From: Gaiellaceae bacterium
Lineage (GTDB): Bacteria; Actinomycetota; Thermoleophilia; Gaiellales; Gaiellaceae
Assembly (NCBI GenBank): GCA_046596415.1
Contig: JBKJML010000141.1
Span: forward strand, 1-43,762
Direction: 5' to 3'
Length of the DNA: 43,762 nucleotides
Below, piece after piece: positions 30,928 to 34,652 of the stretch. Made by a program: the position numbers and the translations under genes. Within the stretch, counting starts at the first letter, position 1; every line of letters starts with the position of its first letter. The notes beneath the pieces are model-generated. The model was given only the letters and a program-made list of their open reading frames with translations. It was not told the DNA's origin and searched no databases.

Positions 30928-30973
30928 AGAGCGGGAGCGACGGGACTCGAACCCGCGACCTCCGGCGTGACAG
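30928..30973 (-). repeat. 46-bp copy of the tRNA-Asp 3' half (att-like distal repeat)
   Basis: AGAGCGGGAGCGACGGGACTCGAACCCGCGACCTCCGGCGTGACAG is identical to 34575-34620. The flanking bases differ on both sides. Confidence 0.9.
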
Positions 30974-31132
30974 TTACGTGCTGCGGGTTACCGTTGGTGT
31001 TCGTTGGTCGCCGTTAGTCGCGCTGTGCGCGGCTTCCGCGCGGCGGCTCTTGTCGTTGGTCGCCACGGGTTGCCGCCGCTGCGTTCCAGAATCGTTCCAA
31101 AAGCCGGTCGCGCCCTCGACGTGCTAGCGGTG

Positions 31133-31201
31133 GGGATGCTTCTATGAGTGGCAAGTGCTCGAGGCAACCTCACTACCACTTGACACTCATAGAAGCATCC
31201 C
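31133..31201. repeat. 69-nt near-perfect palindrome (25-nt arms, 1 mismatch)
   Basis: GGGATGCTTCTATGAGTGgCAAGTG (31133-31157) pairs with CACTTGaCACTCATAGAAGCATCCC (31177-31201); the loop is 19 nt. Confidence 0.85.
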
Positions 31202-31277
31202 TGGTCTCAGAGAGAAGAGGCGGCGCCTAATCCGTCGCCGGCTGGTCGGGCGGGCGGTGGCGAGCGACAATGCGTGG

Positions 31278-34200
31278 ATGTCGAACTGCGTATCGTGTGG
31301 CGCGGCTCTTTCAGGGAGTGCGCGCTTCTGCTCGTCGTGCGGGATGTCGACCGCGATGGCTGCCTCCGCGGTCGAGGAGCGGAAGCTAGTGACAGTGTTG
31401 TTCGCTGATCTTGTCGGCTCGACGGCGCTGGGAGAGTCCACCGATCCGGAGCGGATGCGCGTGGTGCTCGACCGGTTCTACGACGCGATGGCGGCCGAGA
31501 TCGAGCGTGTTGGCGGAACGATCGAGAAGTTTGTCGGGGACGCGGTCATGGCCGCGTTTGGCGCGCCGATCGCTCATGAGGATCACGCCGAGCGGGCTCT
31601 TGCTGCGGCGCTGGCAATGCAGGATCGATTGCGCGAGCTCTTCGGAGACCGCTTGAAGCTCCGGATCGGTGTGAATACCGGGGACGTTGTCCTCGGACGC
31701 GCCCGCCAGGGCAGCTCGTTCGTGTCGGGCGACGCCGTCAACGTGGCGGCGCGGCTCGAGCAGGCCGCGGCGCCGGACGAGATCCTGGTCGGCGAGCGCA
31801 CCGTCGCAGCCGCGGGGGCGGCGTTCGCGTACGGGGAGGGGCGCTCACTCGCGGCGAAGGGCAAGCGGCTTCCCGTCAACGCACGCCCGCTCGTGCGCGC
31901 GCTCGCGCCACGGCGGCCGCGCGGCGCCCGCGGCCTCCGCTCGGCATTTGTGGGCCGCAAGCTGGAGATCGAGTGGTTGGTTCGAGCCTACGAGGCGACG
32001 GTCGCCGGCGGGCGACCGCGGCTCGTCGTTGCCGTCGGGGATCCAGGCGTCGGAAAGAGCCGTCTCGTAGCTGAGTTCGTCGACCGGCTCGCGCGCTTCC
32101 CCAGCTCTCCCGCCGTCGCTCTCGGCCGCTGCCTCGCGTATGGCCGTCAAACGACGTACGCGCCGCTCGGTGACGTGCTCAGGCAGCGGCTCGGCCTCGC
32201 TGAGAGCGCCTCGCCAGCCGACGTGGCGGCTGTTCTTGGGAGCCGGCAGATCCTCGCCCTCGCGCTCGGCGCCGCCGCCGCCGAGGACATCCATCCGCTC
32301 GTCGCGCGGGCACGGTTCCAGACGGCGTGGACGGAGTTCGTCGCCGAGGCGGCGGCAGAGCGCCCGCTCGTGGTCGTCATCGAGGACGCGCACTGGGCTC
32401 AGCCGCAGCTGCTCGAGCTACTCGATGAGCTCGCGGCGACGGGCGAGATGCCGATCCTCATCGTCGTGACGAGCCGGCCCGAGCTTGCGCCCGCCGCCTT
32501 CGCGCGCGCCGCGGCAGAGACAATCCGGGTCGAGCCGCTGCCGGCCGCGTCCGCCGCAGCGATGGCCGCGCAACTTCTGGGCTCAGCGCCACCGCAGCCG
32601 ATGCTCGCGGCCCTCGACCGCGCGGAGGGCAACCCCTTCTTCATCGAAGAGATCGTCGCCAGCCTTCTCGACCGCGGGCTGCTCGTCCGCCGCGAGGGCG
32701 CGTGGGCCGTCGGCGAGCTGCCGCCGTCCGCGGTCCCCGACACGGTCACGTCGCTGCTCGCCTCGCGGATCGATCTGCTTCCGCCGCGTGAGAAGCGGGC
32801 GTTGCAGGCGGCGGCGGTCGTCGGCCGGCGGTTCGGACGCGCGTCCGTCGAAGCACTGGTCGGCGAGCGGCCCGACTTCGCCCTGCTCGAGCAGCGTGAG
32901 TTCGTGGCACGGGCTTCCCCGTCGTCCGTGGCGGACGACGGGGAATACACGCTCAAGCACGCGCTCACGCGTGAAGTCGCGTACGCCGGGGTTCCCCGCG
33001 CTGCACGCGCGCGGCTCCATGCGGCTTACGCCGAATGGGTCGAACGCGAGCGCGGAGCGCGCGACGAGAACGCGCCGGTGCTCGCGCACCACTACGGCGA
33101 GTCGCTGGACGCGGAGTTCCTCGATCTGGCGTGGGGCGAGGACGCCGCGACGATCGAACGCTTGCGCACGAAGGCGCTTCGCTGGTTACAGCGGGCAGCC
33201 GAGTTGGCGATCGGGCGATACGACATCGACCAGGTACTCTCGCTTCTCCAGCGGTCGCTCGAGCTCGCCGAGGATGAAGCGACGACGCACCGCCTCTGGC
33301 GCGCGATCGCCGCGGCGCACGCGCTGCGGTACGACAGCGCCGGATTCGTCAGCGCGAGTCAGCGCGCCATCGACCTCGCGCCTGATGCGCCCGCGAGGTC
33401 TGCGCTGTACGCCGACCTCGCACTCCGCACGTCCGTCGCCGGCTTGATGTGGAACCCTCCGCTCGAGCCGCAGGTTGTCGAGGCCTGGATCGAGAGTGCG
33501 CTCAGGGGCGCCGCGGCTGGGAGCGCGGATCGGGCGAAGGCGCTTCTGGCGCGTGCGTGGTATGAGGCGAACGCGGACGCACCGGCGCGCGAGGCGCTCG
33601 CGATCGCCGAGCGCCTCGACGATCCGGTACTGATCGCGCTCGGGCTGCGCGGTTGCATCTTCGCCGCGACCACGGCTGGCCGCCTCGACGAGGCCGCCGC
33701 GCAAGCCGAGCGGCTCGACGCGATCGTCGGCTCGGTCTCAGATCCCGGCCTGAAGGAGGTCGTGATGACGCCCACCCTGCGCATCGCGATGCTGCTGGGG
33801 AATCTGGACGATGCGCGACGGCATGTCGAGTCGATCGACGCGTTGATCCGGGAGCTCACGCCCCACCATCGGCTTCACGGGCTCGCCTACGCGGTGGAGG
33901 TGGAAGAGCTTGGTGCGTGCTGGGAGCGGGTTCTCGCGCTCGAGCCCGCGGTCGAGGAGGCCGTGGAGCGCAACCGCGCGACGCCGTGCGCCCGCAACGC
34001 GCGGTCGCTGCTCGTCTGCGCGCTCGCGCACGAGGCGGCGGGCAACGGCGGACGCGCGGCCGTGGTCGAGCGTGCGGCTGAGCAACTGCGGATGGAGGGG
34101 CACGTGCGCGTGCTCGAGCCTCTTCTTCTGCGGCTTGCCCTTCTCCGCGGGCGGTCCGAGGAGCTGCAGGACCGGATCGGTCGCTACGGCGCGCCGCAGA

Positions 34201-34496
34201 TCCGGTTCACGTGGGATATCGCCGGCGTCGCCGCCTGGCTCGACGCCGCAGCGGCGCTCGGTCTGCGCGAGGCGATCGAAGCCGCCGCCACCGACATCGC
34301 CTACGAGGCGACGTACGTCGAGCCCTTTGTGCTGCGCGCGATTGGCATCGCGCGCAGGGACGAGGAGCTGATCCACCGGGCCGACCGCGCGTTCGCCGCG
34401 CGAGGACTCGATTGGTTCGCCCAGCAGACGCCGCTGCTGATAGGCGCGGCGACCCGCTCAGGGGCACGCCCTTGCCCCGGCTCTCGGACTAATTGA
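31278..34496 (+). CDS. Zn-ribbon / class-III nucleotidyl cyclase / STAND-type P-loop ATPase / TPR-like repeat protein
   Basis: Zn ribbon CVSCGAAL...FCSSCG. Cyclase motifs VTVLFADLVGST, EKFVGDAVMAAFG, IGVNTGDVV and GDAVNVAARLEQ. Walker A GDPGVGKSR and Walker B VVVIEDAHWA. About 600 aa of helical repeats follow, and no C-terminal HTH is recognisable. ATG 31278 is preferred over GTG 31155, which lies inside the palindrome. Confidence 0.85.
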   Translation: MSNCVSCGAALSGSARFCSSCGMSTAMAASAVEERKLVTVLFADLVGSTALGESTDPERMRVVLDRFYDAMAAEIERVGGTIEKFVGDAVMAAFGAPIAHEDHAERALAAALAMQDRLRELFGDRLKLRIGVNTGDVVLGRARQGSSFVSGDAVNVAARLEQAAAPDEILVGERTVAAAGAAFAYGEGRSLAAKGKRLPVNARPLVRALAPRRPRGARGLRSAFVGRKLEIEWLVRAYEATVAGGRPRLVVAVGDPGVGKSRLVAEFVDRLARFPSSPAVALGRCLAYGRQTTYAPLGDVLRQRLGLAESASPADVAAVLGSRQILALALGAAAAEDIHPLVARARFQTAWTEFVAEAAAERPLVVVIEDAHWAQPQLLELLDELAATGEMPILIVVTSRPELAPAAFARAAAETIRVEPLPAASAAAMAAQLLGSAPPQPMLAALDRAEGNPFFIEEIVASLLDRGLLVRREGAWAVGELPPSAVPDTVTSLLASRIDLLPPREKRALQAAAVVGRRFGRASVEALVGERPDFALLEQREFVARASPSSVADDGEYTLKHALTREVAYAGVPRAARARLHAAYAEWVERERGARDENAPVLAHHYGESLDAEFLDLAWGEDAATIERLRTKALRWLQRAAELAIGRYDIDQVLSLLQRSLELAEDEATTHRLWRAIAAAHALRYDSAGFVSASQRAIDLAPDAPARSALYADLALRTSVAGLMWNPPLEPQVVEAWIESALRGAAAGSADRAKALLARAWYEANADAPAREALAIAERLDDPVLIALGLRGCIFAATTAGRLDEAAAQAERLDAIVGSVSDPGLKEVVMTPTLRIAMLLGNLDDARRHVESIDALIRELTPHHRLHGLAYAVEVEELGACWERVLALEPAVEEAVERNRATPCARNARSLLVCALAHEAAGNGGRAAVVERAAEQLRMEGHVRVLEPLLLRLALLRGRSEELQDRIGRYGAPQIRFTWDIAGVAAWLDAAAALGLREAIEAAATDIAYEATYVEPFVLRAIGIARRDEELIHRADRAFAARGLDWFAQQTPLLIGAATRSGARPCPGSRTN

Positions 34497-34541
34497 GAGC
34501 CCCATCCACACCCCATCACGCGGTAGCGTCTGCCGGACATA

Positions 34542-34569
34542 GGAAAGAAAAATCGCCTGCGTGCAGGCG
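34542..34569 (-). terminator. intrinsic terminator downstream of tRNA-Asp
   Basis: The minus strand reads CGCCTGCACGCAGGCG (hairpin 34554-34569) followed by ATTTTTCTTTCC. Confidence 0.55.
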
Positions 34570-34578
34570 GTTCAAGAG

Positions 34579-34652
34579 CGGGAGCGACGGGACTCGAACC
34601 CGCGACCTCCGGCGTGACAGGCCGGCGTTCTAACCAACTGAACTACGCCCCC
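34579..34652 (-). tRNA. tRNA-Asp (anticodon GTC)
   Basis: The 74-nt minus strand folds by hand as GGGGGCG-TA-GTTC-AGTTGGTTA-GAAC-G-CCGGC-CTGTCAC-GCCGG-AGGTC-GCGGG-TTCGAGT-CCCGT-CGCTCCC-G. CCA is not encoded. Confidence 0.93.

Follow-up and report, generated by a model that had tools for sequence, protein, structure and literature searches.

The window analysed here is a stretch of 43,762 nucleotides from a Gaiellaceae bacterium (GenBank assembly GCA_046596415.1, contig JBKJML010000141.1), in which an intact tRNA-Asp gene is followed by a 3.6-kb insert and then by a second, displaced copy of its own 3' half. With a probability of roughly 0.65, the insert is an integrase-less composite remnant of tyrosine-integrase elements at the anticodon loop of tRNA-Asp, that is, an islet resembling a cis-mobilizable element (CIME) within a long-lived integration hot spot. 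On alignment with other loci (numbered L001 onwards) the insert is a chimera, composed of a distal arm of a recurrent type termed family A, a proximal 77 nt of the type found in the integrase-bearing locus L001, and a cargo gene shared with the metagenomic contig L201. The features on which the argument depends are as follows.

34578/34579-34652, minus strand: intact tRNA-Asp(GTC) gene (ARAGORN; Rfam tRNA, 73.1 bits)
34575-34620, minus strand: repeat copy 1 (attL core), starting at the anticodon loop of the functional tRNA and reaching 4 nt beyond its 3' end into the trailer
34569-34554, then ATTTTTCTTT, minus strand: terminator, a hairpin and T-run on the tRNA strand, now terminating the tRNA (terminator scan)
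34502-34574, minus strand: proximal (P'-like) arm of L001 type, with the terminator hairpin 34569-34554 and T-run (alignment to L001)
34499-34517, plus strand: GCCCCATCCACACCCCATC (CCCCATC twice), candidate arm-type site and integrase-tail remnant, 19/19 identical to L001
31196-34501, plus strand: cargo module, 99.2% identical to L201 (3392-6697)
31278-34496, plus strand: cargo gene, 1072 aa, with a Zn-ribbon, a class III adenylate/guanylate cyclase and an AAA_16 ATPase of the signal transduction ATPases with numerous domains (STAND) type (Pfam)
31133-31201: 69-nt palindrome (25-nt arms, 96% complementarity, 19-nt spacer)
31110-31206: 97-nt segment holding the palindrome, flanked by the 4-nt direct repeat GGTC
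30974-31104, plus strand: distal family-A arm (P-arm-like), aligned to at least 25 distinct arms from other genomes and metagenomes
30928-30973, minus strand: repeat copy 2 (attR core), a displaced, non-functional 3' fragment of tRNA-Asp that marks the far end of the insert

Repeat boundaries and absence of a recombinase

The two 46-mers (30928-30973 and 34575-34620) are identical at 46 of 46 positions and lie on the same strand, and the bases that border them differ on both sides (30927 t versus 34574 a; 30974 t versus 34621 g). There are two copies in the window against none in 100 shuffles, and the distance between them is exactly 3601 bp (30974-34574). An earlier note, made from the letters of this DNA, had described a 46-bp duplication with differing flanking bases, covering tRNA-Asp positions 33-74 plus a 4-nt trailer and enclosing 3601 bp with one gene, a 69-nt palindrome and a terminator that serves the tRNA. 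Each of these points proved accurate, and a check for other copies that the note had proposed, run on the window with each half of the repeat at up to three mismatches, returned no third copy besides the two known ones. An extension of the repeat to 67 nt at 87% identity was rejected; it adds just 12/21 matches, and looks like two terminator-like hairpins rather than att identity.

Read in the tRNA sense, the repeat opens with the 7-nt anticodon loop CTGTCAC, whose first base is linear position 33, and extends to the 3' end of the gene plus CTCT. The tRNA-Asp(GTC) gene encodes no CCA, and the repeat ends 4 nt beyond the discriminator base. The sequence of the intact gene is the same as in 38 Gaiellales loci, and ARAGORN calls no tRNA at 30928-30973. 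The anticodon loop (subsite A) is a canonical crossover subsite for integration into tRNA genes, as is the junction of T-loop and acceptor stem (PMC4383910), and the insert boundary falls at the anticodon-loop subsite. The repeat is a classic tyrosine integrase footprint, and the earlier reading of it as the trace of integration into a tRNA 3' end is borne out by the anticodon-loop boundary, by recurrence of that boundary in relatives, and by integrase-bearing elements at the same site. Together with a terminator, the incoming DNA brings a copy of the tRNA 3' half; the former 3' half now lies displaced at 30928-30973. The 5' part of the present tRNA-Asp gene is chromosomal, and by the standard model, in which an integrating island restores its target tRNA gene (PMC4383910), the 3' part (34579-34620) would come from the incoming element.

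The cargo coding sequence begins with the ATG at 31278 inside an open reading frame (ORF) of 31155-34496, the sole long ORF of the insert. Its only Pfam matches are Zn_ribbon, Guanylate_cyc and AAA_16, with no integrase, resolvase or transposase among them, and the ten longest ORFs in alternative frames of the insert have zero Pfam matches at E<=0.1. Furthermore, a hidden Markov model (HMM) built from five tyrosine integrases found at the tRNA-Asp locus in other genomes, and searched locally against all six-frame segments, found no integrase anywhere in the 43.7-kb window. That no integrase or transposase can be recognised, as the earlier note had stated, is therefore confirmed by the Pfam and HMM checks that it had itself proposed.

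Two arms of different type and a shared cargo

Near the core the distal arm has 10-bp-phased CGTTGGT/CGTTAGT repeats; it also has TCGTTGGTCGCC, which occurs at 31001 and 31053, and two CGTTCCA motifs, one at 31082 and the other at 31093. These 130 nt are conserved in L013, L014 and L020 despite unrelated cargo. A scan of metagenomes for the junction sequence found at least 120 contigs with the same tRNA boundary, and among the matches listed three arm families were distinguished: family A, the window type, with at least 25 distinct sequences, family B, whose arm ends with a ATCTGACAC pair, and family C, which ends with a GGGCAACA pair.

The proximal arm is of another kind. Alignment with L001 spans all of the proximal 77 nt, including GAAAGAAAAA and the terminator hairpin, and GCCCCATCCACACCCCATC lies about 61 nt from the tRNA in the window and 62 nt in L001. 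The L001 insert is 9.3 kb long, and has a Phage_integrase gene and an HTH_17 excisionase-like gene beside the tRNA; the 19-mer lies within the 3' tail of the integrase ORF, and a similar GCCATCGATACCCCATG is present in the distal arm of L001. The C-terminal frame of the L001 integrase stays open through the tRNA complement until a TGA in the anticodon loop, and overlaps the whole proximal arm and the core. This integrase (L001 8216-9380) is split over two frames, by either a frameshift or a long-read assembly error.

Across the loci, proximal arms have paired direct repeats of 7-9 nt at about 55-90 nt from the tRNA end, and distal arms have them at about 110-150 nt. Paired short repeats on either side of a core are the arm-type binding-site layout of lambda-type integrases, and by that analogy we infer that the pairs described here are arm-type integrase binding sites. 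Coherent elements repeat one motif on both arms, as with ATGGGCGTC in L212 (a 10.1-kb viral contig), GTTCCA in L179 and L014, and the CCCCAT type in L001. The arms of the window, in contrast, do not match, with CCCCATC twice on the proximal side versus CGTTCCA twice on the distal side. A short hairpin (containing CCTGCAAAT and GCAGG; GCCTGCACGCAGGC in the window, 34551-34572) lies directly 3' of the tRNA copy in otherwise unrelated arm families, similar hairpins being seen at many loci, among them L008 (9300-9330), L010, L088, L135 and L138. It could act as a common terminator or as a protein site beside the core.

Homology with L201, a contig from JGI sample 3300017787, is limited to 31196-34501, and the flanks differ at both ends. 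The protein encoded there (P0001) is 99% identical to that of the window. To the left of the module, L201 has a divergent P-loop gene fragment; to the right come 162 nt of unrelated DNA, a different, partial copy of tRNA-Asp that covers positions 30-74, and genes of the MarR, EVE and Polyketide_cyc2 types. Homology confined to the cargo indicates that rearrangements other than at att sites shape these loci. At the window junction, TGAGAGCC is followed by CCATCC (GAGAGCC/CCATCC), and GCC is common to the L201-type and L001-type parents. Fusion of an L001-type arm to the stop codon of the cyclase gene is impossible by recombination at the att core and possible by illegitimate deletion.

A second relative, L124, from JGI sample Ga0136611, has a family-A arm of 93% identity that runs straight into the cyclase leader (GGTCTCAGAGAGAAGAGGCGG). 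On the left L124 is unlike the window, the homology beginning at the outer boundary of the att copy. In L202 (3450-3520), a cargo homologue of 68% identity is followed by about 55 nt and then by just the final 11 nt of tRNA-Asp, CGGGAGCGACG; this is a strongly decayed att remnant with unrelated DNA beyond it.

A proposed history of the insert

The simplest history of the insert, all of it inferred, has three steps. First, a cassette carrying the cyclase gene, its distal arm being of family A, would have integrated at tRNA-Asp. An L001-like element, with its integrase beside the tRNA, would then have integrated into the regenerated tRNA gene. Finally, an illegitimate deletion would have spared just the last ~77 nt of the L001-like element and removed, besides the rest of it, the att copy in the middle and the proximal arm that belonged to the cyclase cassette. 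The outcome would be the present order of tRNA, L001-type arm, cyclase gene, family-A arm and 3' fragment. With different repeat motifs on its two arms, the unit can probably no longer be excised by one integrase, and the insert is now probably immobile.

A number of points weigh against this reading. The tandem intermediate was not observed, and the 3-nt microhomology (GCC) at the junction is weak evidence. L001 is from another species (66% aa identity in the flanking gene), so that homology of the proximal arm means membership of a family and not direct descent. Identical 46-mers and a complete distal arm are also expected of a recently active cassette, and the arrangement in L124 fits site-specific insertion of an arm-plus-cyclase unit in two contexts, with arm and cargo apparently moving together. 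Lastly, exact-protein look-ups with the cargo and with its Ice_binding and CvpA-trypsin neighbours found no conspecific contig or empty site.

Family A and possible mobility in trans

Of the other readings, the one that survives best holds that the insert is a functional member of a set of integrase-less family-A cassettes that are moved by a tyrosine integrase and a directionality factor acting in trans, the 130-nt arm being the cis site. We consider this possible, though improbable. It draws on the regularity of family A, of which at least 25 distinct arms have two types of repeat: (C/T)GTT(G/A)GTCGCC-type 10-bp-phased repeats by the core and again at about +90, and a GTTCCA pair at fixed spacing, which in more than 30 arms lies at +149 to +154 nt, in most cases +150/151, counted from the tRNA 3' end (arm pattern GCTGCGTTCCANNNNCGTTCCA; the repeats include CGTTCCA and CGTTGGTCGCC). 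In more than 25 loci, furthermore, blastn homology to the window breaks off abruptly between 31099 and 31109. This arm is carried by at least 25 metagenomic cassettes of 1.2-6.8 kb, all of them without an integrase, and their cargo differs case by case, from an alpha/beta hydrolase to PD40 propellers, an OLD-like ATPase, YcaO and cyclases. Arrays of up to four cassettes (L020, L081, L135), the GTTCCA pair on both arms of L179 and L014, and the same arm and cargo leader beside another flank in L124 also favour movement in trans. Family-A cassettes are small as well: among the matches listed with at least 1.4 kb of sequence, 7/13 family-A junctions close at 1.2-4.4 kb versus 0/8 in family B, whose single complete element is 11.4 kb long and has an integrase, a size comparison in which short contigs favour small complete cassettes.

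Against mobility in trans stands the window itself, in which the proximal arm is not of family A, so that the P' sites for a family-A integrase would be missing here. A proximal arm is altogether absent from several family-A cassettes. Decay is seen elsewhere too: in L081 and L106 the cargo abuts the core with no proximal arm, and truncated arms are found in L084, L113, L127, L166 and L183. In the L176 cluster, the arm diverges by 11-18% and the adjacent 595 nt by 6-9%, which gives no sign of extra constraint on the arm in place. Searches with tblastn (two integrases) and the five-integrase HMM found no cognate integrase in any family-A cassette, and a terminal-overlap test found no circular form among 144 contigs. 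The cargo-only homology of L201 likewise points to rearrangement outside att sites.

The family-A arm pattern has 0 matches in the viral contigs of IMG/VR; a viral scan for the tRNA half gave 24 loci, of which just 4 have this tRNA and none is of family A; and in PLSDB plasmids and INPHARED phages the matches are confined to the part of the arm that is tRNA.

The earlier note had left the choice between a decayed island and a cassette dependent on a recombinase in trans. For the window copy decay is favoured, because its arms come from different families, the proximal arm is homologous to the L001 integrase tail and the cargo occurs with other flanks, whereas for the family-A cassettes at large capture in trans is the less probable, if more interesting, reading. 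Current mobility of the insert in trans is unlikely. We are similarly doubtful of a more general proposal, that family A comprises widespread recombinase-less cassettes of about 1-7 kb in Gaiellales and related soil Actinomycetota, each with the ~130-nt arm as an attP-type site, which a tyrosine integrase in trans would capture serially at the tRNA-Asp anticodon loop and so assemble into arrays. If it is true, family A would be an integron-like capture platform made from a lambda-type att site and a tRNA gene, with the window copy a recently rearranged member.

Two family-A cassettes carry cargo of particular kinds. L179, a 3.5-kb cassette with the GTTCCA pair on both arms, encodes a 579-aa AAA_15/AAA_21 ATPase with a weak OLD-like TOPRIM match, on domain content a defence-type gene in a coherent integrase-less cassette. 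The 6.8-kb cassette of L187 encodes a YcaO cyclodehydratase and an S-adenosylmethionine-dependent methyltransferase, which suggests a small gene set of the type for ribosomally synthesised and post-translationally modified peptides. In L195, fragments of an integrase pseudogene lie 1.6 kb from an A-like arm that is truncated, and the locus was set aside as too rearranged for interpretation.

The cargo gene and the palindrome

More than 7000 proteins match the cargo protein at E<=1e-30, mostly from soil Actinomycetota and Chloroflexota, with source names of the class 3 adenylate cyclase/TPR kind. Homologues of about 53% identity (P0005, P0008) sit in ordinary chromosomal contexts, from which it follows that the cyclase family is overall not island-borne. 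Pfam gives no match to the C-terminal region, over half of the 1072 aa (after about residue 400), and a recombinase hidden there would make the insert a complete autonomous element. Such a reading is very improbable: whole-protein homologues (~50% identity, more than 7000 matches) have ordinary chromosomal surroundings that lack tRNA fragments, the same arm is joined to unrelated genes in other cassettes, and the architecture is a common one of cyclase-STAND type.

Between the window and L201 the cargo coding sequence has 24 differences, of which 18 are synonymous and 6 non-synonymous (dS >> dN), a pattern of purifying selection that keeps the cyclase-ATPase as a probable accessory signalling protein. 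Assignment to the Pycsar defence system was rejected, because the insert holds a single gene with no adjacent effector and the architecture is cyclase-AAA_16; PADLOC gives just weak, partial PycC matches to the cyclase domain (best E = 1.9e-17).

The 97-nt segment with the palindrome is missing from L124, the closest relative of the arm, and could be either an insertion in the window or a deletion in L124. Its RNA fold has a z-score of -4.6, and no second copy was found in 229 loci or in the window. Examined as a miniature inverted-repeat transposable element or other small insertion, it has the GGTC repeat, but the palindrome is internal rather than terminal and single-copy. A match to Rfam mir-3126 (29 bits versus an 80-bit threshold) was dismissed as hairpin noise, and Rfam finds nothing in the arm or palindrome except the tRNA.

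The tRNA-Asp locus as a recurrent target

A search with the flanking protease found 80 loci in species-representative genomes, the best being metagenome-assembled genomes (MAGs) of Gaiellaceae with 63-67% aa identity, and in 38 loci the order of tRNA-Asp, CvpA-trypsin gene and MetH-type (MTHFR) gene is conserved. The genes to the left of the insert in the window are absent 3' of the tRNA in 38/38 of these loci, where the DNA is unrelated in all, and the DNA behind tRNA-Asp is thus hypervariable. These 38 loci also served as the same-site comparison for the insert; they hold other DNA, and the nearest relative has just 66-67% aa identity in the flanking gene. Extra copies of the tRNA 3' half of at least 42 nt, starting at positions 27-33 and ending at 74/75, are present in 9/38 loci, where they bound inserts of 0.8-9.3 kb (two extra copies in L016, four in tandem in L020), and remnants of 20-27 nt are found in three further loci. 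An integrase gene is present in L001 and at the far end of the 9.25-kb insert of L008, and is absent from the remaining inserts of the nine loci by tblastn and HMM; integrase-bearing elements at tRNA-Asp are known from L001, L008, L128 and L169. The tRNA-Asp gene beside the CvpA-trypsin gene is a recurrent integration target in Gaiellales.

The same comparisons make it highly implausible that the 46-mer is a leftover of a local tandem duplication of tRNA-Asp with ordinary chromosome between the copies, a scenario that the earlier note gave as a refutation of its reading and that the direct orientation and identity of the copies would allow: the fragment starts exactly at the anticodon loop, over 100 independent loci have this boundary (positions 28-33) too and enclose unrelated DNA, relatives hold integrase-bearing elements in the corresponding interval, the two copies have different trailers and terminators, and full-length tandem tRNA-Asp genes occur in 0/38 loci.

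In L020 (3074-9935), four partial tRNA-Asp copies behind the intact gene delimit cassettes of ~0.8-2.5 kb with no integrase, whose genes include an HsdM_N fragment, a molybdopterin oxidoreductase, a beta-lactamase-fold protein and DUF4386. A 3.7-kb segment beside tRNA-Asp is 99.3% identical between L018 (549-4240) and L019 (5135-8825), and is also seen in L107. L018 and L019, both MAGs, share no other match of at least 88%, and the segment is 98% identical to a family-A contig. The boundaries of this homology are not at att copies, and the arrangement looks like a recent transfer followed by flank rearrangement, as in the window and L201.

The left neighbours of the insert in the window are Ice_binding, SnoaL_4 and SBP_bac_5 genes, and the right neighbours are a CvpA and trypsin-like protease gene and an S-methyltransferase/MTHFR fusion (all by Pfam). 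Across 27400-31400, G+C is 0.60-0.68 to the left of the displaced fragment versus 0.70-0.76 in the insert and right flank. The left-hand region (SBP_bac_5, SnoaL_4, Ice_binding) may be an older island whose far att copy was lost. A tRNA-Leu(CAG) gene lies 5 kb to the right (39613-39695).

Comparison with known systems

The closest description is that of the CIMEs of streptococcal integrative and conjugative element (ICE) and integrative and mobilizable element (IME) systems. CIMEs arise when an integrated element decays, and they commonly come to lie beside elements that entered later at the 3' end of the same tRNA gene or other target, an arrangement known as tandem accretion (PMC5704250). 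The window insert appears to match this picture, and it lacks integration and transfer genes, as CIMEs do by definition. It keeps attL and attR with identical cores, and both arms are present, though of different families. With regard to ancestry by decay, the proximal 77 nt are homologous to the L001 arm and integrase tail, and L201 shows flank replacement, while the ancestor itself is unobserved. The differences from the streptococcal cases are that the host belongs to the Gaiellaceae (Actinomycetota) and not to the Firmicutes, that a parent ICE or IME is not known, that the arms are of two different families, and that the cassettes are very small (1.2-6.8 kb), with one arm family recurring beside unrelated cargo. 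The insert is accordingly best called CIME-like, with ICE/IME descent and cis-mobilisation putative.

The insert also resembles the class-A tRNA islands of Islander, with an intact tDNA and a displaced 3' fragment in direct orientation, running from the anticodon loop to the 3' end. Islander demands an integrase of each island, including all members of a tandem array, and reports arrays of three or more just 4 times in 3919 islands (PMC4383910). By that rule the insert, which has no integrase, and the family-A cassettes would be filtered out.

Integron cassettes are likewise small, mostly with 1-3 genes, lack a recombinase of their own, and are arrayed beside a fixed insertion point. The arrays described here, however, have no attC-type folded site and no intI/attI/Pc platform beside them (the neighbours are CvpA-trypsin and MetH-type genes), and their junctions are ~250-bp attP-like sites around a tRNA fragment. 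Identity with integron cassettes was rejected on the lack of attC and of an intI platform.

Comparison with heterobivalent attP sites is based on lambda, L5 and P2-type systems. The likeness lies in short, family-specific direct repeats, putative binding sites, which are paired at fixed distances on both sides of the core and are present in the integrase-bearing elements L212 and L001; the difference is that the window arms carry different motifs.

In sum, the insert is probably a decayed composite tRNA-borne islet of a known kind, and the finding itself is fairly ordinary. Its wider interest stems from the locus, since tRNA-Asp in uncultured soil Gaiellaceae turns over accessory genes fast, including STAND-type cyclases, an OLD-like ATPase, and YcaO with a methyltransferase. 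Most of the DNA at this locus is without an integrase, and would be missed by island finders that require one, such as Islander. The window illustrates how two elements and a deletion can give rise to an insert that has perfect att repeats and no integrase, and the recurrent integrase-less arm family is a testable lead to a possible trans-acting capture system, which merits a systematic survey.

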